NCBI GenBank assembly: GCA_964362795.1
Contig: CAYIFW010000002.1
Location: 1 to 51,574, forward strand
DNA: 51,574 bases
Origin: an uncultured Planctomycetales bacterium
GTDB lineage: Bacteria; Omnitrophota; Gorgyraeia; Gygaellales; Profunditerraquicolaceae
Direction of reading: 5' to 3'
Position numbers and translations under genes: made by a program. The notes below the pieces were generated by a model. That model made no database searches. It worked only from the letters and a program-made list of their open reading frames with translations, and was not told the origin of the DNA. Positions 14,813 through 34,351 of this stretch are shown here, piece by piece. Position 1 is the stretch's first letter, and each line of letters starts with the position of its first letter.

Positions 14813-14959
14813 TCCAGGTTTATACAGGTAATGGTAAGGGTAAGACGACTGCGGCCTTAGGAAATTATTGTAAAGAGAAAATACCGGGTAGTTATTCTGG
14901 ATGAAATTAAAGCTATTGACAAATTATTGCTGGGTGTTAAAGTAATTAAAGAATTTTAA
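14809..14959 (+). pseudogene. cobO: Degraded cob(I)yrinic acid a,c-diamide adenosyltransferase (CobO/BtuR) remnant
   Basis: Frame 1 reads MIQVYTGNGKGKTTAALG (CobO P-loop), then stops after 31 codons. Frame 2 from 14885 reads RVVILDEIKAIDKLLLGVKVIKEF* (CobO Walker-B region). About 110 internal codons are missing. Confidence 0.72.
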
Positions 14960-14961
14960 AG

Positions 14962-15120
14962 ATATAGGTTAAGGGAAATCCGTTGGCCGTAAGGCTTATG
15001 AAAGCGGATGCGGTCCCGCCGCTGTAAGGGTAGACGAAAGCTGCTAGTATGTCACCATCGAAAAGATGGTAAGACGGCAGCAAGTAGGTTTAAAACCTAA
15101 GCCAGAAGACCTGCCTATAT
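14962..15120 (+). promoter_or_regulatory. Cobalamin (AdoCbl) riboswitch aptamer 1
   Basis: P1 pairs ATATAGG with CCTATAT. Conserved blocks present: GGTTAAGGGAAATCC, GCGGTCCCGCCGCTGTAAGGG, GTCACCATCG..GATGGTAAGAC and the B12 box AGCCAGAAGACCTGCC (15100-15116). Confidence 0.88.
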
Positions 15121-15164
15121 AAGAGTAATGCCTCGTGGAATGGGCCAAGAAATATTTGGGTGCG

Positions 15165-15197
15165 ACCCGTCAGGCAAAAGTTGACGGGTTTTTTGTT
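15165..15197 (+). terminator. Intrinsic terminator (expression platform of riboswitch 1)
   Basis: ACCCGTCA - 9-nt loop - TGACGGGT followed by TTTTTGTTT, about 20 nt upstream of the cobC start. Confidence 0.8.
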
Positions 15198-15216: not shown

Positions 15217-15810
15217 ATGACGACAAAATTAATTTTGATCAGGCATGGCCAGACTGGCTGGAATTTAAAAAAACGTTATAGCGGTTTTATCGATATCGCG
15301 CTTAATACGCAAGGCCGTAAACAAGCCCGCAAACTTGGCAAACGGCTAAAGGATGAGAAAATCCACAGGGTTTATTCTAGCGACCGGATTCGCGCGCTTC
15401 AAACTGCAAGAATACTTTTTAAGCGCGCCGATATAGGAATAGTCCCGGATTTACGGGAGATGCATTTCGGCGCTTTTGAGGGTATGACTTATAATGAAAT
15501 TATGGCGAAGTATCCCGTTGTTTATAAAAAGTGGTTGTGTAATCCCTTCGCTATTACTATTCCTAAAGGGGAATCATTAGCTGATTTTCAGAAAAGGGTA
15601 GTTGTCGCTTTTAAAAAAATTGTTTTTTCCAATAAAAATAAGACAGCCGCAATAGTCTGCCATGGAGGCACCATTAGTATATTTATCAGTCATATAGCGA
15701 AAACAAAAAAATTCTGGGAACAGATCCCATCTTCGGCTTCTTTAAGCATTATTGAGTATAAGAGAAATAAGGCCAATATCCGGCTCTTAAACGATACGTC
15801 GCATCTCTAA
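15217..15810 (+). CDS. cobC: Alpha-ribazole phosphatase (histidine phosphatase family)
   Basis: 197 aa with the LILIRHGQTGWN catalytic motif. First gene after the B12 riboswitch, immediately upstream of cobU/T/S. Confidence 0.82.
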   Translation: MTTKLILIRHGQTGWNLKKRYSGFIDIALNTQGRKQARKLGKRLKDEKIHRVYSSDRIRALQTARILFKRADIGIVPDLREMHFGAFEGMTYNEIMAKYPVVYKKWLCNPFAITIPKGESLADFQKRVVVAFKKIVFSNKNKTAAIVCHGGTISIFISHIAKTKKFWEQIPSSASLSIIEYKRNKANIRLLNDTSHL

Positions 15811-15812
15811 TT

Positions 15813-16337
15813 ATGGGGAACATTACTTTTATTATTGGCGGCTCAAGGAGCGGCAAAAGCGCGTACGCCTTAGAATTGGCTAAAAAAAGCGGCCGCCGCC
15901 GGGTAGCTTTTATCGCTACCTGCGCTGTTTCTTCTGATAGCGAGATGAAAAAACGTATTATGCTGCATAAAAAGAGCCGGCCAAAACACTGGAAGACTTT
16001 TGAAGATACCGCGGACTTACCTTTATTGTTAAAACAGATCGGGGGAAAGTTTGAAGTTGTTATTATAGATTGTTTGACGCTTTTGGTATCAGGCTTTATG
16101 TTAAAAGGCAATAAAGAAAGTGTGATAAGAAATAAGGTTAATCGAATTTTAAAAATATTACAGAGGGCAAAAGCAAAAACGATTATAGTTTCAAATGAGG
16201 TGGGTTTAGGTATTGTTCCGGATAACCGCATAGCTCGCGATTTCCGGGATATAGCAGGCAGGGTAAATCAGATTGCCGCCAGTAATTCCGATAAAGTGTT
16301 TTTTTTAGTCTCTGGCCTACCATTGAGGATAAAATGA
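15813..16337 (+). CDS. cobU: Adenosylcobinamide kinase / adenosylcobinamide-phosphate guanylyltransferase
   Basis: 174 aa with P-loop GGSRSGKS, then IDCLT..L and VSNEVG motifs. Confidence 0.92.
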   Translation: MGNITFIIGGSRSGKSAYALELAKKSGRRRVAFIATCAVSSDSEMKKRIMLHKKSRPKHWKTFEDTADLPLLLKQIGGKFEVVIIDCLTLLVSGFMLKGNKESVIRNKVNRILKILQRAKAKTIIVSNEVGLGIVPDNRIARDFRDIAGRVNQIAASNSDKVFFLVSGLPLRIK

Positions 16338-17389
16338 TCAAAGACATTACTAAAAAAATAATTAAGATTGATCAGGAGCTTATAAAAAAAACGCAGGACA
16401 GGCTTGATAACCTTACTAAACCGCAAGGCTCTCTTGGTAGGCTTGAAGAGCTAGCCAAGCTTATTGTAGGTATAACTGGCAAAGAGAGCCCTGAATTTTC
16501 CAATAAAGTTATTTTTACTTTAGTTTCCGACCACGGTGTCTGTGAAGAAAGAGTGAGTGCTTTCCCGCAAGAAGTTACCGCGCAGATGGTCTATAATTTT
16601 TTAAGCGGGGGCGCCGGGATAAATGTCTTAGCTAAACACATCGGTGCCCGGGTGGTAGTGGCAGATGTAGGTGTGGCAGCTGATTTAAAAGCGCACCCCA
16701 ATCTTATAATTAGAAAAATAAATTATGGCACCAAGAATATGGCGCGCGAATCGGCAATGACAAGGGCTGAGGCGATTAAGTCCATTGAAACCGGAATTGA
16801 GATATTTGAAGCGGAATTTAAAAACGGTATTGATATTATCGGTACAGGAGAGATGGGGATAGCTAATACTACCGCCTCAAGCGCCATAACTGCGCTCTTT
16901 ACCAAGAGAAGCGTTGAGGATGTTGTGGGCAGGGGCACAGGGATTGATGATAGCGCATTAGAAAATAAAATCAGGGTGATCAATACCGCTTTAAAGATTA
17001 ATGATCCTGATTCCAGTGATGCGATAGATGTTTTAGGTAAGGTTGGAGGTTTTGAGATCGGAGGTTTAGCCGGTATAATTCTGGCAGCATCTTCGCGCAG
17101 GATCCCCGTGGTAATTGATGGGTTTATTTCCGCAGCTAGCGCGTTAATCGCCTACGGCATTGAGCCGAAAGTAAAAGAATATATGATTGCCGCCCATAAT
17201 TCAGTGGAAAAGGGGCATAAAGCTATCCTTGATTATTTAGGGCTAGAGGCGCTTTTGGATTTAAAGATGCGTTTAGGCGAGGGAACAGGCGCATGTCTTG
17301 GAATAGGTTTAGCTGAGGCAGCAATTAAAATTTTAACACAAATGAACACATTCGAATCTGCCAAGGTTTCGGAAAAGATAAAATCATGA
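16334..17389 (+). CDS. cobT: Nicotinate-nucleotide--dimethylbenzimidazole phosphoribosyltransferase
   Basis: 351 aa with LTKPQGSLGRLEEL, GEMGIANTT and LGEGTGA motifs. Confidence 0.93.
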   Translation: MIKDITKKIIKIDQELIKKTQDRLDNLTKPQGSLGRLEELAKLIVGITGKESPEFSNKVIFTLVSDHGVCEERVSAFPQEVTAQMVYNFLSGGAGINVLAKHIGARVVVADVGVAADLKAHPNLIIRKINYGTKNMARESAMTRAEAIKSIETGIEIFEAEFKNGIDIIGTGEMGIANTTASSAITALFTKRSVEDVVGRGTGIDDSALENKIRVINTALKINDPDSSDAIDVLGKVGGFEIGGLAGIILAASSRRIPVVIDGFISAASALIAYGIEPKVKEYMIAAHNSVEKGHKAILDYLGLEALLDLKMRLGEGTGACLGIGLAEAAIKILTQMNTFESAKVSEKIKS

Positions 17390-18123
17390 CAAGCTTCATT
17401 GATGCCGTGCAGTTTTTAACTATATTTCGTTTTCGTAATGATAGGAAATCTTGTCCTGCTTCCAGCGCTATTTGTTTTCCTTTTGTCGGCGCATTCTTAG
17501 GCGTAATACTTATTGTTTTAAATGAGGTCCTGACAAAAGTATTTCCTGAATTGTTGGTTAACTTGATTTTGGTTACTGTATCGATTATCTTGACGGGAGC
17601 GCTACACCTGGACGGTTTGGCAGATACCTGTGATGCCTTCTTCAGTGGCAAGAACAGGGATGATAAGTTATTGATTATGCGCGACCCGCATAAAGGGACA
17701 TTTGGGGTGCTGGGGTTAAGTATTGTTATTTTATTTAAAATAAACCTGCTTGCGCTTATTCCGGTAAACCTTAAGGATACAGCTATATTTTTAATGATGG
17801 TTTTTTCTCGCTATAGCCTGAATATCGGGATAGGTTTTTTTCCGTATGCCAGAGAACAGGGTAAGGCGAATATTTTCTTTGAAGGCAAAAAGTATAAAAA
17901 TCTTCTGCTGGCTACCTTGATAACATTAGTTTTAGCAAGCCTTACTTTTCGGGCTGTAACTTACATAGTTTTTCTTCTAATCATCATTTTTAGTTTATTA
18001 ATGAATAAGATATTCAAAGGGGTACTTGGCGGAATTACCGGGGATACAATAGGTGCGTTATGCGAGTTAACGGAAATAATTACCCTTTTGGCAATATTCG
18101 GCTTGTCAACATTCTACGTATAA
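17386..18123 (+). CDS. cobS: Adenosylcobinamide-GDP ribazoletransferase (cobalamin synthase)
   Basis: 245 aa polytopic membrane protein with HLDGLADTCDA and GGITGDTIGA motifs. Confidence 0.92.
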   Translation: MTSFIDAVQFLTIFRFRNDRKSCPASSAICFPFVGAFLGVILIVLNEVLTKVFPELLVNLILVTVSIILTGALHLDGLADTCDAFFSGKNRDDKLLIMRDPHKGTFGVLGLSIVILFKINLLALIPVNLKDTAIFLMMVFSRYSLNIGIGFFPYAREQGKANIFFEGKKYKNLLLATLITLVLASLTFRAVTYIVFLLIIIFSLLMNKIFKGVLGGITGDTIGALCELTEIITLLAIFGLSTFYV

Positions 18124-18125
18124 AT

Positions 18126-19202
18126 ATGTTATCCGGACACGGTGGTAATATTAGAGAGGTTTCTAAAGCGCGCGGTATTCCTGAGGTTAAGCTTATTGAT
18201 TTCAGTAGTAATGTTAATCCGCTTGGATTTAGCCCAAAAATAAGGCATTTAGGCGCCGAGTTTGCTGGAATAATCCGCCGCTATCCTGATCCTGAATGCG
18301 TAGCCTTGCGTTCGGGGTTATCCGGCTATCTAGGTGTTAGTACTGATAATATTTTGGCAGGCAACGGCTCAAACGAATTGATTCATTTAGTTCCTCGAGC
18401 GCTGAACTGTTCTTCGGCGTTAATCTATAAGCCGGCATTTTGCGAATACGAATTAAGCGTTAAAATTGCTAAAGGCAAGCCATATTTTTTATTCGCGCGT
18501 GAAGAAAATGGATTCACTTTTGATATCGAAGAGGCCTTTACGTATGTAAAAAAAGTGGAGATGATTATTTTGTGCAATCCAAATAATCCTACCGGCAATC
18601 TGCTAAAGAAAGACGCGCTTCTGGAATTAGCCGCTTATTGCGCTAAAAATAAAACCTACCTGTTTATCGACGAAGTATTTATGGAATTTACCGATGATGA
18701 GAATAGTTATTCACTAAAAAATATGGTTACAAAGAATAAATACCTTTTGATTTTAAGAAGCCTGACAAAGTTTTTTAGCCTTGCGGGTTTAAGGATCGGT
18801 TATTTGCTGGCGGATAAAAATTTAATCAAAAAAATCAGCTTGCTTCAGCCGACTTGGTCAATAAACGGCTTAGCGCAGGAGATAGCGTTAAGGAGCCTGT
18901 CTGACGCAAAATTCATCAAAAAAAGTAAGGAATATATTATACGAGAAAGGGATTTTTTGTTTAGCCGCCTTAAGCGGATTAGGGGGATTTATCCGTATTA
19001 TCCCAACGCCAATTTCATATTTTGTAAAATTCTGGATAAGCGTTTGAATTCCGGTTTACTGTATTTGCGTCTGTTAAGATCCGGTATCCTGATTAGGGAT
19101 TGCAGTAATTTTGACGGGTTGGATAACCGTTTTTTCAGGATAGCCGTAAGGAAGCATCAGGATAACCTTCATCTTTTGAATAAATTACAAAATATCATTT
19201 AA
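18126..19202 (+). CDS. cobD: Threonine-phosphate decarboxylase (class II aminotransferase fold)
   Basis: Start moved to ATG 18126 (MLSGHGGNI...), 3 nt after the cobS stop. NPNNPTG and the SLTKFFSLAGLRIGY PLP-lysine context are present. Confidence 0.88.
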   Translation: MLSGHGGNIREVSKARGIPEVKLIDFSSNVNPLGFSPKIRHLGAEFAGIIRRYPDPECVALRSGLSGYLGVSTDNILAGNGSNELIHLVPRALNCSSALIYKPAFCEYELSVKIAKGKPYFLFAREENGFTFDIEEAFTYVKKVEMIILCNPNNPTGNLLKKDALLELAAYCAKNKTYLFIDEVFMEFTDDENSYSLKNMVTKNKYLLILRSLTKFFSLAGLRIGYLLADKNLIKKISLLQPTWSINGLAQEIALRSLSDAKFIKKSKEYIIRERDFLFSRLKRIRGIYPYYPNANFIFCKILDKRLNSGLLYLRLLRSGILIRDCSNFDGLDNRFFRIAVRKHQDNLHLLNKLQNII

Positions 19203-20725
19203 TGAAAACACGCGTATTACAAATTTGCGGGACAGGTTCAGGGGTGGGAAAAAGCGTAATCGTAACCGCTTTGTGCCGGATATTTTTACAAGACGGATAT
19301 AAAGTTTGCCCTTTTAAGGCGCAGAATATGTCGTTGAATTCTTTCGTTACATCCGGAGGCGCGGAGATGGGCAGGGCGCAGGTAACTCAAGCTTTGTCCT
19401 GCCGGATACTGCCGCATGCCGATATGAATCCTGTTTTACTTAAACCGATGACTGATATTGGATCACAGGTAATTGTTCAAGGTAGACCCGTAGGAAATAA
19501 AACTGCAAGGCAGTATCAACAGAAAAATTATAAACAGCAGCTATTCCTGAAGGTAAAAGAATCATTCGGACGCCTGAAAAAGGAATATAACATGCTTGTT
19601 ATTGAGGGTGCGGGAAGCCCTGCCGAAATTAATTTAAAAAGACATGATATCGTAAACCTGAAGATGGCCGCTTACGCCAAGGCGCCGGTTATTCTGCTTG
19701 GAGATATTGATAAAGGAGGGGTATTCGCCTCTTTGGTTGGCACGCTTCAACTGCTTGATAAAGGAGAGCGGCGCCTGATCAAAGGTTTTATCATTAATAA
19801 GTTTCGCGGAGACAAGTCCCTGTTAAAATCCGGTATCCGTTTTCTGGAAAGAAAAACAAAAAAACCCGTTTTGGGTGTAATTCCGTATTTTAAGGATATC
19901 ACGATGCCGGAAGAAGATTCGGTTGCCCTTGATGGGTTAGCCAAGAAGGCGCAATATTATCAACGGGTTAAAGGCGCCATAAAAATAACTATAATTCAGC
20001 TGCCGCATATATCCAATTTTACGGATTTTGATGCTTTTAAAAGAGAGCCGGATATTTCTTTGGATTATATTGATGACGCCAGCCGATTTGATAATCCTGA
20101 CTTGATAATTATCCCGGGAACAAAGAATACAATCGAGGATTTAATTTGGCTTAAAGATTCCGGATTAGCCGATAAAATAATATCAGCGCTTAAGCGTAAA
20201 GAGCCGGCTTTTGTAGCCGGCATTTGCGGCGGTTACCAGATCTTGGGGAAAAAGATTTACGATACTTACGCGGTCGAATCAAAAAAGAAACAGATTAATG
20301 GTTTGGGGATACTTCCAACCGTAACTTTTCTGGAAAAAGATAAGGTACTTACTCAGGTGCGGGCCAGGGAAGTTAGTTCAGGGTTAGAAGTTTTTGGTTA
20401 TGAGATTCATCACGGGCGCAGCCGTAATCTTGGCGGCTACCAACCGGCTTTTCAAATTACTGAACGTGCCGGAAAGCGGGTTAAAGATTTTGACGGGGTT
20501 CTGGCGGACAGAAAAAATATCCTGGGGACCTATATTCACGGGTTATTTGACGCGGATAATTTCAGGAGAGATTTTCTTAACCGTATCAGGGTTAAAAAGG
20601 GGTGGCTTGCGTTAAATAATGCGGTATCTACTAATCTTAATACGGAATTTGAGAGGCTTGCGGATCTGGTTCGAAAAAATATCGATATGAAATTATTATA
20701 TAAAATTTTAAAGGCAGGAATTTAA
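19202..20725 (+). CDS. cobQ: Cobyric acid synthase
   Basis: 507 aa with GTGSGVGKS, EGAGSPAEINL, and a C-terminal GATase domain carrying GICGGYQILG and HG. Confidence 0.95.
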   Translation: MKTRVLQICGTGSGVGKSVIVTALCRIFLQDGYKVCPFKAQNMSLNSFVTSGGAEMGRAQVTQALSCRILPHADMNPVLLKPMTDIGSQVIVQGRPVGNKTARQYQQKNYKQQLFLKVKESFGRLKKEYNMLVIEGAGSPAEINLKRHDIVNLKMAAYAKAPVILLGDIDKGGVFASLVGTLQLLDKGERRLIKGFIINKFRGDKSLLKSGIRFLERKTKKPVLGVIPYFKDITMPEEDSVALDGLAKKAQYYQRVKGAIKITIIQLPHISNFTDFDAFKREPDISLDYIDDASRFDNPDLIIIPGTKNTIEDLIWLKDSGLADKIISALKRKEPAFVAGICGGYQILGKKIYDTYAVESKKKQINGLGILPTVTFLEKDKVLTQVRAREVSSGLEVFGYEIHHGRSRNLGGYQPAFQITERAGKRVKDFDGVLADRKNILGTYIHGLFDADNFRRDFLNRIRVKKGWLALNNAVSTNLNTEFERLADLVRKNIDMKLLYKILKAGI

Positions 20726-20728
20726 ACT

Positions 20729-21682
20729 ATGGAATATCGGGTATTGGCTGTTTTGCTTGCTTATCTGCTGGATTTAGTTTTTGGCGACCCCCAATGGAGT
20801 TGGCATCCTGTGCGTATTATCGGCAGGTTAATTGCAAAATCGGAAATCCCCCTTTATAAGAGCAGATTCAATAAAAGGTTATCCGGTTTTTTGCTAGTGA
20901 TTTTAGTTATCGGTATCACGGTTATTGGTGTTTTTCTTATTCTTAAAATAAGCAGGCTAATTCATGCGTATCTTTATTCCATCACCTATGTATTATTGAT
21001 ATATTTCGCGTTGGCAGCCAAGTCTTTAGCTGCGGAGGCAGGTAAGGTTTATAAGGCGTTAAGAAAAAACGATATTATACAGGCAAGGAAGAGTTTGTCG
21101 ATGATAGTTGCTCGCGATACCGAAGCCTTAGAAGAGCCGCAGGTTATCCGGGCAACCGTTGAAACCGTTGCAGAAAGCACAATGGACGGGATAATCTCGC
21201 CGTTGTTCTACGTATTTTTAGGCGGGCCGGTTTTGCTTTGGGCCTACAAGGCAATTAACACTTTAGATTCAATGGTTGGCTACCGTGATGATAAATATAT
21301 GTTTTTTGGCAGGGCCGCGGCAAAAATAGACGCGATAGCAAATTTTATCCCTGCTAAGATTACCTGTTTTTTTCTTTTGATTGCAGGCTATTGCTGCGGC
21401 AAATACCGCAGAAACTCTTGGTTATGGCTTAGGAGGTATTTTTTTAAAGGCAAGGAATATAACAGCGAAGCAACCGAGGCAGTTATGGCGTCGGCATTAG
21501 GTATCCGTTTAGGCGGCATAAATTTTTATAATTCTATCCAAGCGCGTAAAAACTTTATCGGTGATGATACCTATCCCCTAAAGATAACGCATATCAAGGA
21601 GAGTATTAGAATCGCCTATGTGGCATCGGGATTATGCCTGGCGATGAGCATATTGTTTGTTTTCTTAACCGGAGGGAGGTGA
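20729..21682 (+). CDS. cbiB: Adenosylcobinamide-phosphate synthase
   Basis: 317 aa membrane protein with LDLVFGDPQW..HPVRIIG and TLDSMVGYRDDKY motifs. Confidence 0.93.
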   Translation: MEYRVLAVLLAYLLDLVFGDPQWSWHPVRIIGRLIAKSEIPLYKSRFNKRLSGFLLVILVIGITVIGVFLILKISRLIHAYLYSITYVLLIYFALAAKSLAAEAGKVYKALRKNDIIQARKSLSMIVARDTEALEEPQVIRATVETVAESTMDGIISPLFYVFLGGPVLLWAYKAINTLDSMVGYRDDKYMFFGRAAAKIDAIANFIPAKITCFFLLIAGYCCGKYRRNSWLWLRRYFFKGKEYNSEATEAVMASALGIRLGGINFYNSIQARKNFIGDDTYPLKITHIKESIRIAYVASGLCLAMSILFVFLTGGR

Positions 21683-21685
21683 AAA

Positions 21686-21838
21686 ATGCAAAAGAAGAGC
21701 CTTAAACGCAGTACTAAAAAAGCGGGTGCGGCAAAATCCGATAGCCTAGCTTACCGGCTTAAATGCGCCAAGACTGCTAATGGATTATCGCATTTTGTGA
21801 TGTATGGGGATGCCCCGAAAGGAAAAACGCTGGTATAA
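21686..21838 (+). CDS. Unannotated 50-aa basic peptide ORF (MQKKSLKRSTKKAGAAKSDSLAYRLKCAKTANGLSHFVMYGDAPKGKTLV)
   Basis: Absent from the ORF track, presumably because it is shorter than about 60 aa. ATG lies 6 nt after a GGAGGGAGG SD and 4 nt after the cbiB stop. It sits directly upstream of a radical SAM/SPASM gene. No family recognised. Confidence 0.45.
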   Translation: MQKKSLKRSTKKAGAAKSDSLAYRLKCAKTANGLSHFVMYGDAPKGKTLV

Positions 21839-21843
21839 TGCAT

Positions 21844-21903
21844 AAATAGGGACAGCGACTATTTTTCTGCGACTCTTTAAATAAATAGTCGCTGTCCCTA
21901 TTT
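21844..21903. repeat. Perfect 21-bp inverted repeat (hairpin) with 18-nt loop
   Basis: AAATAGGGACAGCGACTATTT (21844-21864) is the exact reverse complement of AAATAGTCGCTGTCCCTATTT (21883-21903). It lies between the peptide ORF and the radical SAM gene. Confidence 0.92.
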
Positions 21904-21920
21904 AAAAAGGAGAAACTAAA

Positions 21921-23276
21921 TTGGATAATGAATTGAGTATTTGGAAGGATGGCCGTAATAACTCTATACTTTTAGACGCGGATAACGCATTTTGGGCGCT
22001 AAACGGTAATAACGCAGACGGCTCCATCAAAATTGCCGGTAATGTTTTATCTCTCTATGAAAATATCAGGAATAATCTGGATACCCAGATGCAGGATTTC
22101 AGGTTTAGCGCTAACCTGACCGCTCTTTACATTGACCCTACGGATAAGTGTAACGCAAATTGCCCGTATTGTTATATACCCAGCCGCATCCGTAAAAATG
22201 GCAGGTCAATGACCAGGAAAGAACTATTTTTTATATTAGATCAGGCAGCCGTATATTTTCGTAAACTTAAAAGGAAAGCGGTGATTATCTTTCATGCCGC
22301 GGAGCCCCTCTTGGTCAAGGACATAATATTTGAGGCGATAAAAAAATACAACAGGGAATTTAAATTCGGTTTACAGACAAACGCCTCGTTATTAAAAAAA
22401 GAAGATGTTGAATTTTTGAAGAAATTTAATGTCGGCGTGGGTATTTCTTTGGATTATCATTCCCAGCAGATAAATAACCGGTTGCGTCCGTTGGATAATA
22501 AAGGCGGGAATTTTAAAGCGGCAATTCAGGCGATTGATTGGTTTAACGGCTACGAGGGCTTGAATGTCATTACTACTATTACCAAGCTTAATGTTGCAGG
22601 CCTGCCTAAGATTGTAGAGTTCTTGCATAAGAGAAAAGTGGCTTGTGTATTGCTTAATCCGGTCAGGCTTACGCAGAAATATAGCCGTGTCTTAAAGCCG
22701 GATGAAACATTGATGGCAAAATATTTCATCAAAGCTGTGGATAAAGCGATAGAATTATCAAAAAAATCAGTCAATAGGATAATTATCGGAAATTTTACCA
22801 ATACTATTTTAGCTATCGTTGCTCCCGTTGCCCGCAGGTTAATGTGCGATATCTCCCCTTGCGGAGGCGCCAGGTGTTTTTTAACGATTACCGCTAAAGG
22901 CGAGATGATTCCTTGCGGTGAGTTCATCGGATTAAAGGGGTTTTCCGGAGGCAATGTTTTTGCCAAAACCAGTATCCAGCAGGCCATGCGGTCAAAACCA
23001 TTTAAAATAATCCGGGAAAGGTTTGTAGAAAAGATAGACGAATGCAAAGTTTGCGTTTTGCGTAATATTTGCGGAGCGCCGTGTCCGGCAGAGCTGCATT
23101 CCTTAGGCAATATGTATCAAAAGGCAGTGTTCTGTGAATTCTATAAAAAAGTTATAAACTATGCTTTTAAATTAATTGCCCAAGGAGAAGAAAAATATTG
23201 TTTTAGGAAGGGCGGATTGAATAATCTTAAATATGAATACAAATTATCCTCGGATACTTTTAGCAGGCACAAATAG
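21921..23276 (+). CDS. Radical SAM / SPASM-domain protein with ~55-aa N-terminal extension
   Basis: CNANCPYC (CX3CX2C) is present. The C-terminus has a full SPASM Cys set (MCDISPCGGARCFLTITAKGEMIPCGEF ... CKVCVLRNICGAPCPAE). The TTG start at 21921 has SD GGAG 8 nt upstream. The first ATG is at 22089. N-terminal ILLDADNAFWALNGN is faintly PqqD/RRE-like. Confidence 0.88.
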   Translation: MDNELSIWKDGRNNSILLDADNAFWALNGNNADGSIKIAGNVLSLYENIRNNLDTQMQDFRFSANLTALYIDPTDKCNANCPYCYIPSRIRKNGRSMTRKELFFILDQAAVYFRKLKRKAVIIFHAAEPLLVKDIIFEAIKKYNREFKFGLQTNASLLKKEDVEFLKKFNVGVGISLDYHSQQINNRLRPLDNKGGNFKAAIQAIDWFNGYEGLNVITTITKLNVAGLPKIVEFLHKRKVACVLLNPVRLTQKYSRVLKPDETLMAKYFIKAVDKAIELSKKSVNRIIIGNFTNTILAIVAPVARRLMCDISPCGGARCFLTITAKGEMIPCGEFIGLKGFSGGNVFAKTSIQQAMRSKPFKIIRERFVEKIDECKVCVLRNICGAPCPAELHSLGNMYQKAVFCEFYKKVINYAFKLIAQGEEKYCFRKGGLNNLKYEYKLSSDTFSRHK

Positions 23277-24621
23277 CCGGGTAGGCAAGACTACTCTTAC
23301 AATGGGGCTTATCTCGGCGCTTAAAAAACGCGGATTAACGGTTCAGCCGTTTAAGGCAGGCCCTGATTATATTGACTCATCGTATCATGGTTATGTATCA
23401 GGCCGAAGCTGCAGAAACCTTGATACTTGGATGCTTTCTAGGGATACCGTGCTCGAATTATTCCAGCGCCAGGCAGAGCAAAGTGATATTTCAGTTGTAG
23501 AGGGAGTAATGGGCTTATATGACGGAGTAGCCGCTAAAGAAGAAGGCTCAAGCGCTCATCTGGCAAAGATACTTAAATCACCTGTAATTTTAGTAGTGGA
23601 CGCGCGTTCTTTGTCAAGGAGCGCGGCGGCAGTTGTTTTAGGTTATAAAGAATTTGACAGAGATGTTGACTTAAAAGGAGTTATCCTTAATAATATAGGA
23701 AGCTCCGCGCATTTTCGCAGCGTAAAATATTCTATTGAAAAGACTACGGGTTTAGCCGTGCTGGGATTCTTGCCTAAAGATGAAAACCTGAATCTGCGCG
23801 AGCGGCACTTGGGGTTAATACCGGCGCAGGAAAAAAGGCCCCTGAATGCCTTGCTCAAGACAATAACCCAACTGGTTGAAGACAATATCGATGTCGGTAG
23901 GATTATAGCAATGTCTAGAGGTTCTGCGCAGCTGCCGGATTTTAAACCCAGATTATTTTCTAGGAAAGCCTTACAGCTAAAAGCCAACATTGCTATAGCC
24001 AAGGATGCCGCGTTTAATTTTTATTATCAGGATAATTTGGATCTTCTCTCTTATTACGGCGCTAAATTAAGCGAATTTAGCCCGCTAAAAGATAAGGCGT
24101 TACCGGCAGGCGTAAATGGCATTTATATCGGAGGAGGTTTTCCGGAATTATTCGCTCGTCGATTAGCCAAGAATATTGCTTTAAAAAATGATATTTTAAG
24201 GCGCTCCAGAGAGGGCATGCCGGTTTATGCCGAATGCGGCGGCCTGATGTATTTGATGAAAAATATCGTTAATTGCCGGAATAAAAATTTTGCTATGACA
24301 GGAGTATTTGATTCTTCGGTTAAGCTGGGAAGCAAGTTATCGGCATTAGGTTACGTTAATATAAAAGTTATTAAGAATAATATTTTAAGCGAAAAAAATA
24401 CCAGGGCCAGGGCGCATGTATTTCATTGGTCATACTTAGAGAAGCTGCCCGGAAAAACTAATTTTGCCTACTGCCTCAGGAAGAATGGAAGAATTATCGA
24501 TGATGGTTTTTTAAAATGGAATGTTTTGGCAAGCTATGCCCATCTGCATTTCGCAGCTTACCCAAAATTTGCCAAAAATTTTATACACAACTGCCAAACA
24601 TATGCGCAAAAAAATCAATGA
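23233..24621 (+). CDS. cbiA: Cobyrinic acid a,c-diamide synthase
   Basis: 462 aa with AGTNSRVGKTT, EGVMGLYDG, and a GATase domain carrying YAECGGLMYL. Overlaps the radical SAM 3' end by 44 nt. Confidence 0.93.
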   Translation: MNTNYPRILLAGTNSRVGKTTLTMGLISALKKRGLTVQPFKAGPDYIDSSYHGYVSGRSCRNLDTWMLSRDTVLELFQRQAEQSDISVVEGVMGLYDGVAAKEEGSSAHLAKILKSPVILVVDARSLSRSAAAVVLGYKEFDRDVDLKGVILNNIGSSAHFRSVKYSIEKTTGLAVLGFLPKDENLNLRERHLGLIPAQEKRPLNALLKTITQLVEDNIDVGRIIAMSRGSAQLPDFKPRLFSRKALQLKANIAIAKDAAFNFYYQDNLDLLSYYGAKLSEFSPLKDKALPAGVNGIYIGGGFPELFARRLAKNIALKNDILRRSREGMPVYAECGGLMYLMKNIVNCRNKNFAMTGVFDSSVKLGSKLSALGYVNIKVIKNNILSEKNTRARAHVFHWSYLEKLPGKTNFAYCLRKNGRIIDDGFLKWNVLASYAHLHFAAYPKFAKNFIHNCQTYAQKNQ

Positions 24622-25255
24622 AATTCGGATATTAAGGATAAATAAAAGTTGCGCCTATTTTTCCTGTCACAAGGGTTTAGAGGATTGCACCTTTTGTTAT
24701 TGTCCGTTTTATCCCTGTAAAGACCAGGCTCGGGGTGAATTTATATTTACCAAGAATAAAAAAAAGATTTGGTCATGCCTGGATTGTTCTTGGATACATA
24801 AGAAAAAAAATGTGGATAATATTTTCAAGCTCGTCCGTCTGAGCAATATAAATCCGCGTAAATCCAACCAGAAATTAAAAACTAAAAATACGGGGATAAT
24901 TATCTTAGGCCATGGCTCGAAATTAAAGAAGGCAAACAATTCTTTGTGTGAAGTTGTAAAAGAAATAAAAAAACACGGCCTTGAAGTTGTCGAGCCGGCA
25001 TACCTGCAATTGCATAAGCCGGTTTTGCATAAAAGCGTAAGCAGGCTCATCGCCAAAGGCTGCCGAAATATAATCATTGTTCCGTTTTTCCTTTTTATGG
25101 GCAATCATGTAAAAAGGGACGTGCCTAAGATAATTATGAAGGAAAAGAAATTTTATCCCGGAGTTAATTTTATCTATACCAGGAATATCGGCTCGGATAA
25201 TAGGATAACTGACATAGTTTTGGATTGCCTAAGAGAGGTTTTGCAATGCGCGTAG
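24602..25255 (+). CDS. cbiX: Small CbiX-type sirohydrochlorin cobaltochelatase fused to an N-terminal cysteine-rich small domain
   Basis: Start taken at ATG 24602. The N-terminus CAYFSCH..CTFCYCPFYPC...WSCLDCSWIH matches the Cys-rich small domain (Pfam zf-like, from memory). The C-terminal ~120 aa (GIIILGHGS...IIIVPFFLFMGNHV) is CbiX-S-like. Confidence 0.78.
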   Translation: MRKKINEIRILRINKSCAYFSCHKGLEDCTFCYCPFYPCKDQARGEFIFTKNKKKIWSCLDCSWIHKKKNVDNIFKLVRLSNINPRKSNQKLKTKNTGIIILGHGSKLKKANNSLCEVVKEIKKHGLEVVEPAYLQLHKPVLHKSVSRLIAKGCRNIIIVPFFLFMGNHVKRDVPKIIMKEKKFYPGVNFIYTRNIGSDNRITDIVLDCLREVLQCA

Positions 25256-25896
25256 AGAGAAATCCGAGGCTGATTGAAAATAAAAGTTTTGCCATAATCG
25301 AGCGGCTGCTGCCGGATTTAAAATTGCCGCGTTCGGAAAAAGAAATATTAAAACGGGTTATTCATGCTACAACCGAGTTGGATTACGCCAAAGATTTAGT
25401 TTTTGGCCCCCGGGCAGTAAAAGCAGGAATAGCTGCGATCAAAAACGGCAGGGATATAATCTGTGACGTGAGCATGGTTGAGGCAGGTATCAATAAGAAA
25501 TCCCTATCTCAATTCGGCGCGAAGGTTATTTGTTCTATCAATGATAAGGACGTAGTAAGAGAGGCGGGCCAATTAGGAATAGCCAAGGCGATTGTCGCGA
25601 TGCGTAAGAGCAGCCGCTTAATGAACGGCGCGATAATTGTGGTCGGTAATGCTCCGACCGCTCTTTTTGAAATTTGCGATTTAGTCAAAAAAGGCCGGGT
25701 AAAGCCGGCTTTAATAATTGGTGTGCCGGTTGGTTTTGTGGGCGCCGTAGAATCCAAAAAATATTTAACTTCCATAAATATCCCGCATATAACCAATCGT
25801 TCTAAGCGCGGCGGAAGCAGCGTGGCGGCGGCAATTACGAATGCCATGTTGAAATTGGCAGAAAGGAGGGTAGCTGATAAAAAGCAGTCGTATTAA
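25246..25896 (+). CDS. cbiC: Cobalt-precorrin-8 methylmutase
   Basis: Start taken at ATG 25246. Motifs VIHATTELDY, IVVGNAPTAL and GVPVGFVGA are present. Confidence 0.92.
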   Translation: MRVERNPRLIENKSFAIIERLLPDLKLPRSEKEILKRVIHATTELDYAKDLVFGPRAVKAGIAAIKNGRDIICDVSMVEAGINKKSLSQFGAKVICSINDKDVVREAGQLGIAKAIVAMRKSSRLMNGAIIVVGNAPTALFEICDLVKKGRVKPALIIGVPVGFVGAVESKKYLTSINIPHITNRSKRGGSSVAAAITNAMLKLAERRVADKKQSY

Positions 25897-25916
25897 AAAT
25901 AACTGACAAAAATAAT

Positions 25917-26064
25917 GGAATGAATAAGCGGAAAATGAGGTGAAAATCCTCTACTATCCGGTAACTGTGATGGAAACGAAAGCTAATTTATCCACTGTCT
26001 TTTATATAAATAAGGCGGGAAGGATGGCGAGTAGGCAGTCCTAAGTCAGGAGACCTTTCATTCC
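25917..26064 (+). promoter_or_regulatory. Cobalamin riboswitch aptamer 2
   Basis: P1 pairs GGAATGAA with TTCATTCC. Conserved blocks present: GGAAAATGAGGTGAAAATCCT, CCGGTAACTGT, TCCACTGT...GGGAAGG and the B12 box AAGTCAGGAGACCTT. No terminator follows. SD AAGGAGG is at 26075-26081. Confidence 0.85.
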
Positions 26065-26086
26065 GAAAATCCCCAAGGAGGAAAAA

Positions 26087-27007
26087 ATGGAAAAGTCCGC
26101 GATACTATTGTTTCTGTTTTTAATAATGTCTATATCGTTTGCGCATGGAGAGGATAAAGAGCTTGATCCTGTTTGGGGCCCGCCTTCGGCAGGGCCTGTA
26201 ACTACTTGGACAGCTCCTCTTTGCGGAAAGAGAAAATTTGTTGTTCAGCCGTTCTTTTTTTATAACAGGGCACGGGGAAGCTTTAATTCAGATGGGCATT
26301 ATGATTCCCTGCCTAAAGGCGATAAAAAATACCAATATCAGGAGCAGCTTTTTGCACAATACGGAGTTACTGACAGACTTGAAATTGATGGGCAGATAGT
26401 TTATCAGGAGAATTACATAAAGCAGGATGGTGTTAGTGCGCATGCGCAAGGTTTTGGCGATAGCTATCTTTTTCTCAGGTATTGCGCTTTGGAAGAGAAA
26501 GACTGGTTTCCTCATATAACAGGGTTATTTCAGCTCAAAATGCCCGCAGGCAAGTATGAAGACGCCGACCCTGATAAATTAGGAGCGGATTTAATGGGCG
26601 CAACATCCGGAGGAGGTTCGTGGGATCAGGGATTCGGAGTTGCTTTAACCAAAAGAATAAAGCCGTTCGTTTTTCACGCTGACACGATATACAGTTTTCC
26701 GCAACAAGTGTCTGTTGATGGAGCAAAGACGCGTTACGCGAATTATCTTAATTATGACTTCGGAATAGAATATTTTCTACCGAAAGGTTTCAATCTCATG
26801 TTCGAAGCCAATGGATTTTTACAGGGAGACAGAAGGGAAGATGGGAGGAAGACTCCCCATTCGAATGTTAATTATCTTACCCTTTCTCCCGGTATCGGAT
26901 GGTCAAGCGATAAAATTCAAACCTTGATAGCGTATCAGCGCGTAGTGGCGGGAACGAACACCGACGCCAATGATTCGGTGGTTGTAACTTGCGTGTATGC
27001 GTTTTAA
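26087..27007 (+). CDS. Outer-membrane beta-barrel protein (resembles the MetA-pathway/phenol-degradation-like transporter family)
   Basis: 306 aa with signal peptide ...SISFAHG/ED, alternating amphipathic strands, a GFGDSYLF motif and a C-terminal YAF typical of OMPs. First gene after riboswitch 2. Confidence 0.68.
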   Translation: MEKSAILLFLFLIMSISFAHGEDKELDPVWGPPSAGPVTTWTAPLCGKRKFVVQPFFFYNRARGSFNSDGHYDSLPKGDKKYQYQEQLFAQYGVTDRLEIDGQIVYQENYIKQDGVSAHAQGFGDSYLFLRYCALEEKDWFPHITGLFQLKMPAGKYEDADPDKLGADLMGATSGGGSWDQGFGVALTKRIKPFVFHADTIYSFPQQVSVDGAKTRYANYLNYDFGIEYFLPKGFNLMFEANGFLQGDRREDGRKTPHSNVNYLTLSPGIGWSSDKIQTLIAYQRVVAGTNTDANDSVVVTCVYAF

Positions 27008-29713: not shown

Positions 29714-30783
29714 ATTCAGCCGGGTTAAGAAAAGGTTTTACTACCGGAACCTGCGCGCAGGCAGCGGCAAAAGGCGCTTGTATTATGTTGACGCAGCGTA
29801 AACAGCTTGGCCGTGTTGAGGTAATTACTCCTTCGGGCGTAAAATTATCTATTCGCCTTATTGATCAGGAGATCGGAGATGATTTTGCCAAATGCGCGGT
29901 GGTAAAAGACGCCGGTAGCGATCCGGATATAACCAATGGCGCCAAAATCTGCGCCGAGGTAAAATTTTTTAAAGGAGAAGGTGTAAAAATAAAAGGCGGT
30001 AAAGGCGTAGGCAGGGCTACTTTGCCGGGGTTAGCTGTAAGTGTGGGTGAGTGGGCGATTAACCCGACGCCAAGAAGGATGATTTTAGGCGAGGTATCCA
30101 GATTCCTTCCGCAAGAAAAAGGGATTGAGGTAACGATAAGCGTTCCGGATGGAGAAAGGCTGGCAAAAAAAACTTTTAACCCGAAACTTGGGATAGCCGG
30201 CGGAATATCGATTATCGGCACAACCGGTATTGTGGAGCCGAAATCACTCGATGCCTACAAGGCAACCCTTGCTCTGCAATTGGATGTTCTGAAAGCGCAG
30301 GGGTATAATGATCCGGTATTTGTTTTAGGCTATGTAGGAGAGGCCTTCTGTAAAGATAAATTAAAATTAAAAAAAGGTTCTATGATAAAAATAGGTGACC
30401 ATATCGGCTTTATACTTAAGGAGTGCGTGAAGAGAAAAATAAAAAAAGTTTTATTAGCCGGGCATATCGGTAAGCTCATTAAATTAACCAGCGGCCAGTT
30501 TAACACTCATTGTGATTTCGGAGACAACCGGCTCGATTCTATCGCTGGTTATGCCGCTTCTTGCGGGGCGGATAAGAAGCTTGTCGTTAAAATTTTGTGT
30601 CAGAAAACAGCCGAGGCAGTTATACCGATTTTAAGAGAGGTGGAATTGGCCGATGCGGTATTTATGAGGATAGCCGCGGATGTGTCAAATAAATGCAGGG
30701 AATTTGTAAAAGGCAAAGTTGCCGTAAGTTGTAGTTTGCTTTCATTAACCGGAGAGCTCTTAGCTAAAACGGATGGGTTATAA
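29710..30783 (+). CDS. cbiD: Cobalt-precorrin-5B (C1)-methyltransferase
   Basis: 357 aa with LRKGFTTGTCAQAAAKGA, DAGSDPDITNG and GTTGIVEP motifs. Confidence 0.93.
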   Translation: MNSAGLRKGFTTGTCAQAAAKGACIMLTQRKQLGRVEVITPSGVKLSIRLIDQEIGDDFAKCAVVKDAGSDPDITNGAKICAEVKFFKGEGVKIKGGKGVGRATLPGLAVSVGEWAINPTPRRMILGEVSRFLPQEKGIEVTISVPDGERLAKKTFNPKLGIAGGISIIGTTGIVEPKSLDAYKATLALQLDVLKAQGYNDPVFVLGYVGEAFCKDKLKLKKGSMIKIGDHIGFILKECVKRKIKKVLLAGHIGKLIKLTSGQFNTHCDFGDNRLDSIAGYAASCGADKKLVVKILCQKTAEAVIPILREVELADAVFMRIAADVSNKCREFVKGKVAVSCSLLSLTGELLAKTDGL

Positions 30784-32116
30784 GGTGTATATTATCGGCG
30801 CAGGCCCCGGGCAGAAAGATTATATTCTTCCGGTTGCCAGGCCTTATATTGAAAAGGCTGATTGTTTAATCGGAGCCAAGCGGCTCCTGAGCTTATTCCA
30901 TAATCACGGGAAGAAGGAAATAATCTTTGACGGGCATCCGGGTAAGGTTATCTCCTATGTTAAGCGTTTTAAAAACAAAGAGCGTATTGTTATCCTTGTT
31001 TCCGGGGATCCGGGTATGTACAGCCCTTTGGAAAAGATCTCCCAGGTGTTTAAGAAAAACGAATACGCTGTGATTCCGGGAATAAGCACGCTACAGCTTG
31101 CTTTTGCCAGAATCGGGCAGAGTTGGTTCGACGCCAAGGTTATCAGTCTTCATGGCAGAAAAATAGATAATTTTGCGGATAAGATCAGCCCGTATCCGAA
31201 AATATTTCTGTTAACCGATGCGTCATTTTCTCCGGATAAAATCGCTGCGCATTTGCTTAAGGAGGGCGTAGAGAACAGGCGAGCAGTTGTTCTGGAGAAT
31301 CTTTCTTATGCGAATGAAAAAATTTTAGATACTGATCTTAAGCATCTGGCAAAGAAAAAAGGTTTTGGTTTATGCGTGATGATAATTGAGGCAAAACTCA
31401 AGAAATCTCCTAAGCTATATGGCATTGGGCTTGGGCCGGGAGACCCTAAACTAGTTACTCTGAAAGCAAAAGAGATACTCGATAAGGTTGATATTGTCTT
31501 TGCGCCAAAAGGCAGTGAGGACGGCTCTTCATTGGCGCGCTCAATAGTTGAAGCAGTTACAGAAACGCAGAAAAATTTCGTGGAGTTGACCTTTCCCATG
31601 ACAACGGATAAAACTCTTCTTGACAAATATTGGATGGATGCCGCGCGCATGATAGCGCAAGAGATACACAAAGGAAAAGAAGCTGCTTTTGTTACTATCG
31701 GAGACCCGTTTATTTACAGCACCTATACCTATCTTTTAAGGACATTAAAACGTAATTTTAAAGGTATTGATGTGGAGACTATTCCTGGCGTAAGCGCTTT
31801 TAACGCGGCTTCTTGCCGGCTGCAATTTCCGCTTGTTGAAGGCCGCCAAAAATTGGCAGTTGTGCCGGTTACAGGGGATTTAAAAGCTGTGAGGCAGGCG
31901 CTTGAGGAATTCGAGACGGTTGTGTTAATGAAAGTCGGCGCGAAATTAAATAAGGTGGTTTGCCTTTTAAAAGAAATGGGGTTAGTGAATAATGCTGTTT
32001 TGATAAGCCGCGTAGGGCATAGAGACGAGAGGATAATTCGTAATCTGGCTTTGTTTCGGAATAAAAAGGCAGGGTATTTATCCGTAATTTTAGTAAGAAA
32101 GGATTTCAAGAGATGA
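30773..32116 (+). CDS. Fusion of CbiE (cobalt-precorrin-7 C5-methyltransferase) and CbiL (cobalt-factor II C20-methyltransferase) domains
   Basis: 447 aa with two TP-methylase domains. N-terminal half: VYIIGAGPGQKDYILP..SGDPGMYS. C-terminal half: LYGIGLGPGDPKLVTLKA...FPMT...IGDPFIYSTY...IPGVSAF. Confidence 0.82.
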   Translation: MGYKVYIIGAGPGQKDYILPVARPYIEKADCLIGAKRLLSLFHNHGKKEIIFDGHPGKVISYVKRFKNKERIVILVSGDPGMYSPLEKISQVFKKNEYAVIPGISTLQLAFARIGQSWFDAKVISLHGRKIDNFADKISPYPKIFLLTDASFSPDKIAAHLLKEGVENRRAVVLENLSYANEKILDTDLKHLAKKKGFGLCVMIIEAKLKKSPKLYGIGLGPGDPKLVTLKAKEILDKVDIVFAPKGSEDGSSLARSIVEAVTETQKNFVELTFPMTTDKTLLDKYWMDAARMIAQEIHKGKEAAFVTIGDPFIYSTYTYLLRTLKRNFKGIDVETIPGVSAFNAASCRLQFPLVEGRQKLAVVPVTGDLKAVRQALEEFETVVLMKVGAKLNKVVCLLKEMGLVNNAVLISRVGHRDERIIRNLALFRNKKAGYLSVILVRKDFKR

Positions 32117-33611: not shown

Positions 33612-34351
33612 ATATCGTTGGTATCGGGCCTGGAGACTTATCTCAATTAAGCAAGAGCGCTTATGATGCCATAATCGAATCTCAGGTAATCGTAGGATAC
33701 ACTACCTATATAAAACTTTTAGGTAAATTAATAGCGGATAAGGAAATTATTTCTTCCGGGATGACTCAGGAGATTGTCCGCGCAAACAAGGCAATCGAAA
33801 AAGCGCTTGCGGGTAAAATTGTTTGCGTGATCTCAAGCGGAGACCCGGGAATTTATGGTATGGCTGGGCTTATATTAGAGCTTTTAAAAAAAAGCGATAT
33901 AGAAAAGCTGCGGATAGAGATTATTCCCGGCATAACCGCGGCATCTGCTTGCGCAAGCCTTTTAGGCGCTCCACTGGCGCAGGATTTTGTTGTTATCTCT
34001 TTAAGCGACCTTTTGGTTACGCGTAAGGAAATTGAAAGAAAACTAAAATACGCTGTAAGGGCTGATTTTGTGGTTGTTCTCTATAATCCAAAAAGTAAGA
34101 GTAGGATTAAGCCGCTTGAGCGAGCATGGAGTATTATCAGTCAATACAGATCCGCTCAAACACCCGTGGGGATAGTCAGGAATGCTTATAGAGATTATCA
34201 ATATTTAAGGGTAACACAGCTTAAGAATGTAGGCCGGATAAAGGATATCGATATGGCTACGACAATTATTATCGGTAATTCACGGACGTATGTTAAAGGA
34301 AGATATATGATTACCAGCCGGGGTTATGATATAAAAAATGTTTTTCGATAA
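33512..34351 (+). CDS. cbiH: Cobalt-factor III (C17)-methyltransferase
   Basis: LNIVGIGPGD...SSGDPGIYGMA...IPGITAA identifies CbiH. The conserved domain starts near 33608. The only canonical in-frame start is TTG 33512, inside cbiG, so the true start is uncertain. Confidence 0.86.
   Translation: MPALRLIGGKEDKINSKKRDFRRRNSSNCPGKLNIVGIGPGDLSQLSKSAYDAIIESQVIVGYTTYIKLLGKLIADKEIISSGMTQEIVRANKAIEKALAGKIVCVISSGDPGIYGMAGLILELLKKSDIEKLRIEIIPGITAASACASLLGAPLAQDFVVISLSDLLVTRKEIERKLKYAVRADFVVVLYNPKSKSRIKPLERAWSIISQYRSAQTPVGIVRNAYRDYQYLRVTQLKNVGRIKDIDMATTIIIGNSRTYVKGRYMITSRGYDIKNVFR

Follow-up and report, generated by a model that had tools for sequence, protein, structure and literature searches.

A CbpA/CbpB-type peptide and radical SAM enzyme pair in a B12-riboswitch-headed cobamide operon

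Several described systems combine a small precursor peptide with a radical S-adenosylmethionine (SAM) enzyme of the SPASM type. In PqqA/PqqE and MftA/MftC, a tiny precursor with an extremely conserved core serves an intracellular metabolic role. CteB/SCIFF and PapB comprise a radical SAM core, a full SPASM region, an extra N-terminal domain and a small upstream precursor with several cysteines; the first auxiliary cluster of CteB has an open site, thought to bind the substrate cysteine. The anSME enzymes act on a single residue of their substrate and accept either Cys or Ser, while AhbC, AhbD and NirJ show radical SAM/SPASM architecture together with a genomic association with tetrapyrrole genes. 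The closest described system is the curated CbpA/CbpB family, represented in NCBIfam by TIGR04164 for the peptide and TIGR04163 for the enzyme, whose model names, cobo_pep and rSAM_cobopep, suggest a cobalamin-biosynthesis context. Here we describe a gene pair from an uncultured bacterium (assembly GCA_964362795.1, contig CAYIFW010000002.1), in a stretch of 51,574 nucleotides (nt) that we refer to as the 51.6-kb window. The pair lies between CbiB and CbiA, which fits that context. On sequence grounds, it is a member of the already curated CbpA/CbpB family, and its peptide is a variant that escapes the curated peptide model. An earlier reading of this DNA, the original prediction, had treated the pair as unassigned, which was incomplete in this respect. 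The pair consists of the following elements, the two ribosome-binding sites being read off the sequence:

21671..21679, forward strand: Shine-Dalgarno-like GGAGGGAGG, 6 nt 5' of the cbpA ATG and overlapping the final cbiB codons
21686..21838, forward strand: cbpA, an open reading frame (ORF) of 50 amino acids, with its ATG 3 nt past the cbiB stop
21752..21811, forward strand: invariant core YRLKCAKTANGLSHFVMYGD of CbpA, residues 23-42, the presumed recognition and modification region
21843..21904, forward strand: stem-loop between cbpA and cbpB, with a 22-bp perfect stem and an 18-nt loop
21908..21912, forward strand: AGGAG ribosome-binding site of cbpB, 8 nt 5' of the TTG start; the same in locus L024
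21921..23276, forward strand: cbpB, 451 amino acids, TTG start, radical SAM/SPASM
21921..22118, forward strand: N-terminal domain of CbpB, approximately residues 1-66, modelled as three β-strands and one long helix (AlphaFold2, predicted local distance difference test 64-78)
22149..22172, forward strand: CX3CX2C motif (C77, C81, C84) for the radical SAM [4Fe-4S] cluster, invariant in 58 sequences
22845..23135, forward strand: SPASM region from C309 to C405, a full cysteine set for two auxiliary clusters, aligned to CteB and anSME

Much of this layout had been anticipated. The 50-residue Lys-rich ORF with a single Cys is present where the original prediction placed it, as is the ATG 6 nt past GGAGGGAGG, and the 451-residue radical SAM enzyme with a complete SPASM cysteine set is confirmed by Pfam and by an alignment of 58 homologues. 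The hairpin between the genes was correctly called perfect, its length being 22 bp and not 21 bp. An N-terminal extension of about 55 residues had also been described; the extension stands, and its length is about 65-70 residues ahead of the radical SAM core.

CbpB belongs to a curated peptide-maturase family. The cbpB product matches TIGR04163, "peptide-modifying radical SAM enzyme CbpB", with 484.3 bits against an equivalog cutoff of 375, and the match spans residues 12-425 (profile positions 9-425 of 428). On the same model, the canonical member P0282 scores 733.8 bits, and the archaeal sister proteins P0289 and P0293 remain below the cutoff with 338 and 310 bits. The runner-up models for CbpB are PapB (127.1 bits, cutoff 340), DynA (100), HxsB (90) and anSME (TIGR03942, 89.7 bits, cutoff 349.45), all of them peptide or protein maturases and all far under their own cutoffs. 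The SCIFF maturase model gives 72.3 bits against a cutoff of 425, the tetrapyrrole models AhbC and NirJ1 give 59.8 and 55 bits against cutoffs of 650, and the PqqE and MftC models lie outside the 25 best matches. Since each of those family cutoffs is missed, the pair is not a sactipeptide, ranthipeptide, anSME or AhbD/NirJ system. Placement of the enzyme in a well-characterised clade, such as the sulfatase maturases, had been named as a refuting outcome; it lies outside anSME (89.7 bits against 349) and within the CbpB family.

Structurally, CbpB follows the expected layout. Pfam assigns Radical_SAM (PF04055) to residues 73-233 with 63.6 bits and SPASM (PF13186) to residues 314-378 with 23.4 bits (cutoff 21.5). 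Beyond the CX3CX2C motif, cysteines 242, 309, 314, 319, 332, 375, 378, 384, 388 and 405 are invariant in the 58-homologue alignment. The AlphaFold2 model has a predicted template modelling score of 0.76; its barrel core is modelled with confidence, and its SPASM part is poorly defined. A Foldseek search with this model returns CteB (PDB 5why, E 4e-15), anSME and ChlB as the nearest structures, followed by TigE, SuiB and SkfB. Within the N-terminal domain, D19, N22, F24 and W25 are near-invariant across the 58 sequences, and the domain may be a peptide-binding module. The original prediction had called this N-terminus faintly similar to a RiPP recognition element (RRE; RiPP, ribosomally synthesized and post-translationally modified peptide). 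The three strands and one helix of the model lend this weak support, and a Pfam scan of CbpB at E ≤ 0.001 gave just Radical_SAM and SPASM and no PqqD/RRE family.

Homologues of CbpB at 60-85% identity are plentiful in metagenomes, and those named by NCBI, from metagenome-assembled genomes (MAGs) of Omnitrophota and Nitrospirota, carry the name CbpB. The family is compact: among 1.84 billion representatives searched exhaustively, only a handful of 50%-identity clusters exceed approximately 350 bits. Sister proteins at about 30% identity form a further tier with the same N-terminal module. The sister proteins that were looked up sit in archaeal-looking contexts with no related peptide nearby; we rejected these archaeal enzymes as members, as they are below the TIGR04163 cutoff and have no GLSH-type peptide nearby.

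The cbpA product, MQKKSLKRSTKKAGAAKSDSLAYRLKCAKTANGLSHFVMYGDAPKGKTLV, has 50 amino acids, one Cys and no signal sequence. It is composed of a variable Lys-rich N-terminal half, the invariant core and a short tail. At each position of the core, at least 119 of 121 sequences are identical. Over the 60 nt that encode the core, the summed entropy in 20 loci amounts to 5.3, 4.7 and 26.6 at codon positions 1, 2 and 3, respectively. Core variation thus falls almost entirely on third codon positions, the signature of purifying selection on the protein, and the coding-conservation check suggested for the short ORF comes out in its favor. cbpA is a real protein-coding gene and the partner of cbpB.

Searches yield 268 CbpA homologues at E ≤ 0.01 and, with a profile, 714 at E ≤ 0.1. 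The best 120 profile matches were listed, and all are of the window subtype; the canonical form was obtained by looking up distant representatives of CbpB. The tail after SH[FY] measures exactly 13 residues in each of 156 window-subtype peptides, and the median net charge of the leader in this set is +5. Canonical CbpA, a 37-residue peptide (MKTGMERTQKDVIAYRKKCQASGAGLSHYILMDKKEK) upstream of the distant CbpB P0282 in locus L025, scores 51.6 bits on TIGR04164. The window peptide, in contrast, scores 13.7 bits against a cutoff of 35, with a match covering its residues 22-38 and profile positions 3-19 of 25. It likewise differs from the canonical form in its length of 50 residues, an additional invariant MYGD block and the fixed-length tail. 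Common to both are the motif A-Y-R-x-K-C-x5-G-L-S-H-Y/F, an enzyme above the equivalog cutoff, a peptide gene immediately upstream of it and a cobalamin-operon context. The shared core identifies the window peptide as a longer variant of canonical CbpA. Weak matches to TIGR04164, between 11 and 24 bits, are also obtained for nine of ten diverse peptides of the window subtype. The curated model misses the whole subtype, several hundred sequences in public data, and among the best 120 matches of two listings each source name given for such peptides is "hypothetical protein".

Two further distant family peptides keep G-L-S/T-H-Y. Of the family peptides examined, a single one lacks Cys27, and the most widely kept residues are G-L-S/T-H-Y/F. 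In locus L028, a peptide at 326-454, with the stretch ...CFRLRSSRRRSGLTHYVEK, lies upstream of a distant CbpB that scores 482 bits on TIGR04163.

Peptide and enzyme are inherited together. We retrieved 23 genomic loci with the CbpB enzyme. Enough upstream sequence is readable in 19 of them, and each of these 19, from Omnitrophota, Nitrospirota, Planctomycetota, Chloroflexota and a deltaproteobacterial MAG, has a CbpA-homologous ORF immediately ahead of cbpB and on its strand. Neighbouring cob genes are present in 19 of the 23 loci, with btu genes in several. An orthologue comparison had been named as a check, and both the cob linkage and the conserved upstream peptide emerge from it. The insertion points vary (after CbiB, after CobQ, after CobU or after CobS), which indicates that the pair behaves as a mobile two-gene module kept with cobamide genes. 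The closest relative of the window is L024, where the enzyme is 85% identical, operon and riboswitch are the same, and the 50-residue gene was called by the gene caller.

Some other genomes have the pair as the first cistron behind a B12 riboswitch. In L008, an adenosylcobalamin riboswitch ends 74 nt 5' of cbpA. In L022, a cobalamin riboswitch precedes cbpA, and the pair is followed only by CobT. In L019, a locus with no cob neighbours, the contig opens ahead of cbpA within a riboswitch whose remaining part aligns with the 3' half of the L008 one. A precursor and SPASM maturase co-regulated with B12 genes, as originally proposed, is supported by the curated CbpB family, the purifying selection, the co-travel of the two genes and these riboswitch-first loci.

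Some other genes recur around the pair. A Dph6-like ATP-pyrophosphatase gene (PF01902) lies at or near cbpAB in six loci, namely L001 (4885-5679), L002, L003, L005, L007 and L016, and is not present in the 51.6-kb window; it could be an accessory gene of cbpAB. In the Nitrospirota loci L001 (7304-8017), L002 and L023, a small radical SAM gene of 237 amino acids sits directly 3' of cbpB, and BtuF/C/D-like genes and a CobA adenosyltransferase follow. L017 (3892-10266), from the deltaproteobacterial MAG, has no cob genes around the pair; two U32 peptidase-family genes and an ABC1 kinase take their place.

Within the window, the pair is embedded in an operon headed by riboswitch 1. The elements that frame it are:

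14949..15132, forward strand: aptamer of cobalamin riboswitch 1 (Rfam RF00174, 72.4 bits, gathering score 31.5), heading the operon with cbpA and cbpB
15164..15190, forward strand: terminator-like 10-bp stem followed by the T-run TTTTGTTTAT, directly 3' of aptamer 1
20729-21682, forward strand: CbiB (CobD/CbiB), the 5' neighbour of the pair, with its stop codon at 21680-21682
23233-24621, forward strand: CbiA, the 3' neighbour of the pair
25904-26076: cobalamin riboswitch 2

The stem and T-run at 15164-15190 are probably the expression platform of riboswitch 1. According to the ORF list of the window, all genes from 15217 to 25896 are on the forward strand, in the order CobC, CobU, CobT, CobS, CobD, CobQ, CbiB, cbpA, cbpB, CbiA, CbiX and CbiC. 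The operon is continuous from riboswitch 1 through cbpA and cbpB; its biggest gap is the 82-nt cbpA-cbpB spacer, the other gaps comprising only a few bases, in keeping with the expected lack of a promoter-sized interval upstream of the pair. Past riboswitch 2 follow an outer-membrane channel, CbiM, CbiQ, CbiO, CbiD, a CbiE-CbiL fusion and further methylases with CbiG. All genes flanking the pair in the window are cob or cobalt-transport genes. We found no leader peptidase, peptide exporter or immunity gene in the window, where the transport genes are CbiMQO, for cobalt, and no peptidase or peptide-type exporter beside the pair in the window or in the related loci examined. cbpB overlaps the predicted start of cbiA by 44 nt (23233-23276), and the overlap is 50 nt for the called genes of L024; such overlaps suggest that translation of cbpB is coupled to that of the cob genes 3' of it.

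A conserved stem-loop separates the two genes. Its arms at 21843-21864 and 21883-21904 are complementary over all 22 bp, and the 18-nt loop lies between them. The minimum free energy is -33.8 kcal/mol (z = -7.7; none of 200 shuffles folds as well), and the element is the longest and strongest inverted repeat of the window. We rejected two simpler identities: it is not a repeat dispersed in the window, where its sequence occurs once, nor a canonical intrinsic terminator, as no U-tract lies 3' of the stem and the element is absent from the output of the terminator scan. A long and strong stem-loop without shared sequence is found soon past the cbpA stop in 17 of 20 loci. This count is based on folds of the whole spacer, as a fixed 70-nt window past the cbpA stop under-counted stems longer than 70 nt (10 of 20 loci in the lowest 2%). 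L024 has a different perfect stem of approximately 16 bp (z = -5.9) in place of the window hairpin. Around it, L024 and the window agree for the most part in the flanking coding DNA and in the cbpB ribosome-binding site, with 86% identity over the whole aligned stretch. The exchange of one perfect stem for another between mostly identical flanks argues for selection on structure and not on sequence. The spacers of L006 (5690-6000), L015 (470-814) and L008 (1912-2353) extend over 300-440 nt; those of L006 and L015 each contain one very long palindrome, the inserts looking related, and that of L008 contains short tandem repeats. Precursor genes with a 3' stem-loop are known from pqqA and the lantibiotic structural genes, and for pqqA the stem-loop raises the transcript level.

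Compared with the other described systems, CbpB shows both likenesses and differences. CteB is its best structural match and PapB its best model outside the CbpB family, and it shares with both the radical SAM core, the full SPASM region, the extra N-terminal domain and the small upstream Cys-containing precursor. It differs in scoring far under the cutoffs of these families, in a peptide with one conserved Cys where theirs have several, and in its B12 context; moreover, its N-terminal domain is about 30 residues shorter than that of CteB, and it has a Cys where CteB has none. anSME is the second-best structural match, and its auxiliary-cluster cysteines are fully conserved in CbpB. anSME has no N-terminal domain, and the substrate of CbpB would be a dedicated 50-residue peptide. 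PqqA/PqqE and MftA/MftC share the tiny precursor, the extreme conservation of its core, the radical SAM/SPASM enzyme and, probably, the intracellular metabolic role, whereas no PqqB/C/D or MftB/D/E equivalent lies near cbpAB. AhbC, AhbD and NirJ, finally, share architecture and genomic setting and differ in having no partner peptide.

We consider it moderately likely that CbpB modifies the CbpA peptide, that the product is repressed by B12 and that it is tied to cobamide metabolism. In the mechanism we propose, scarcity of cobamide would cause read-through of the riboswitch, so that CbpA and CbpB would be made along with the cob enzymes. By analogy with pqqA and the lantibiotic genes, the stem-loop may raise the ratio of cbpA to cbpB message by halting some transcripts or by blocking 3' exonucleases, and the raised cbpA message would supply more substrate than enzyme. 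CbpB would bind the invariant core, possibly via its small N-terminal β-sheet domain, cleave SAM to the 5'-deoxyadenosyl radical, abstract a hydrogen from a core residue and install one modification. The most likely product would be an intramolecular cross-link at the single conserved Cys27, namely a thioether of the sactipeptide/ranthipeptide type. This Cys27-based cross-link is the leading guess because only one Cys is conserved and the nearest neighbours form thioethers; the assignment of a thioether is nevertheless tentative. Modified CbpA would stay in the cell and serve cobamide synthesis, salvage or cobalt/corrinoid handling and not act as an antibiotic. The lack of a peptidase or exporter beside the pair, together with the lack of a signal sequence, makes an intracellular location probable.

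As to its biological meaning, we cautiously suggest that modified CbpA might be an unrecognised working part of anaerobic cobamide metabolism, such as a cobalt or corrinoid carrier, a subunit of a cob enzyme or a small-ligand precursor, made only when B12 is scarce. The last point follows from the direct B12-riboswitch control of cbpA in several phyla. The anaerobic cobamide pathway is usually regarded as fully enumerated, yet a peptide/maturase pair is conserved in the cob operons of at least four phyla, under the same B12 riboswitches as the pathway genes. If the suggestion holds, a ribosomally made, radical-SAM-modified peptide would be added to this pathway. The existence of the family was already catalogued; the value of the present analysis is that a neglected question of B12 biology becomes directly testable, as the true coding sequence, the 20-residue core, the minimal motif Y-R-x-K-C-x5-G-L-S-H-Y/F, the stem-loop and the riboswitch control are now defined for experiment.

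A number of observations weigh against this interpretation. In the CbpB-CteB alignment, CbpB has a Cys, C319, at a position where CteB has none, in which it resembles anSME, and the alignment thus gives no support for a CteB-like mechanism. The L028 peptide has a Ser where Cys27 aligns, making the modification site a guess. The TIGR04164 match of the window peptide is weak (E = 0.032, below the cutoff). Three or four of the 23 loci lie outside a cob context, and the same applies to the distant member L027. As no U-tract follows the hairpin, its effect on transcription is unproven, and the palindromic inserts of about 300 nt or tandem repeats in some spacers offer insertion of a mobile palindrome as an alternative origin of the stem-loops. 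Finally, no publication on the CbpA/CbpB family was found in the literature searched.

Among the other explanations, CbpA could be a sacrificial precursor like PqqA or MftA, for which CbpB makes the first cross-link before unlinked enzymes excise a cofactor or ligand for cobamide metabolism. The extreme invariance of the core across phyla and the absence of an exporter typify cofactor precursors, in contrast to antimicrobial peptides. The tail fixed at 13 residues in 156 of 156 subtype peptides points in the same direction, and the Dph6-like gene (six loci) and the extra small radical SAM (L001, L002 and L023) could be accessory enzymes. We nonetheless regard this fate of the peptide as unlikely: neither a peptidase nor a tailoring gene is conserved along with the pair, the window has just the two genes among its cob genes, the Dph6-like gene is missing from its 51.6 kb, and PqqE and MftC are not among the 25 best models for the window enzyme.

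A second alternative concerns the chemistry only and fits the rest of our interpretation. CbpB might be an anSME-like oxidase that converts Cys27 to Cα-formylglycine, giving an aldehyde-bearing peptide. This is a live alternative, given C319, the Ser in the L028 peptide and the equal structural closeness of anSME. Both the structural comparison and the hidden Markov models place anSME near the top, C319 is present in anSME and absent in CteB, and the substitution in that one distant peptide is the kind an anSME would tolerate. Against it, the anSME model is matched with 89.7 bits where 349 are needed, CbpA reads C-A-K-T-A and has no C/S-x-P/A-x-R sulfatase motif, and the Cys-to-Ser case is a single sequence. 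On balance, such an oxidation appears improbable, and the cross-link at Cys27 stays our preferred chemistry.

The original prediction also offered a tetrapyrrole-modifying enzyme that fills a gap in the pathway. Here, CbpB would act on a corrin intermediate and stand in for a missing step (CbiJ or CbiT, for example), with the small ORF as an unrelated small protein or a scaffold. cbpB is indeed embedded among cob genes, the SPASM enzymes AhbC, AhbD and NirJ act on tetrapyrroles and AhbC and NirJ1 are weakly matched (59.8 and 55 bits), and neither CbiJ nor CbiT domains were seen among the operon ORFs scanned. However, these scores are far under the cutoffs of 650 and under those of six peptide-maturase models, peptide or protein maturases make up the closest families and structures, and the peptide is co-inherited in 19 of 19 resolvable loci. 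Furthermore, four loci have no corrin-ring genes near the pair: its neighbours in L005 and L018 are nucleotide-loop genes, L019 has it alone, preceded by a riboswitch remnant, and CobT is all that follows it in L022. This idea is not supported, and we consider it very unlikely. A secreted antimicrobial or signalling RiPP that lies in the cob operon by chance would suit the classic sactipeptide/ranthipeptide layout of a small ORF followed by a SPASM maturase and the basic N-terminal half of the peptide, but is scarcely credible in view of a core invariant across four or more phyla, whereas antimicrobial cores diversify, of the lack of a peptide-type exporter, leader peptidase or immunity gene in the window or the related loci examined, and of the repeated cob linkage and direct B12-riboswitch control.

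Further observations concern the surrounding window. The ORF at 34338-35042 (234 amino acids), the last of the riboswitch-2 operon, has no family match besides a TonB C-terminal-like stretch. We considered it as a hidden CbiJ and rejected this, as it has no Pfam or NCBIfam match and its sole PDB match is a TonB C-terminal domain. The first ORF past riboswitch 2 (26087-27007) is an outer-membrane channel of the MetA/phenol-degradation type, and the two ORFs together may form a cobalt or corrinoid uptake route. Just past the cob cluster lie a second radical SAM gene and then a UbiA-family prenyltransferase (35209-36240 and 36715-37665); for this radical SAM protein, the AhbD and NirJ models give 135 and 126 bits, respectively, far under their cutoffs. 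The CbiX-type chelatase at 24521-25255 has an N-terminal Cys-rich small domain (PF04071); among NCBIfam models, those for sirohydrochlorin nickelochelatase match it best, with sub-cutoff scores. A single fusion protein of 447 amino acids (30773-32116) combines CbiE and CbiL.

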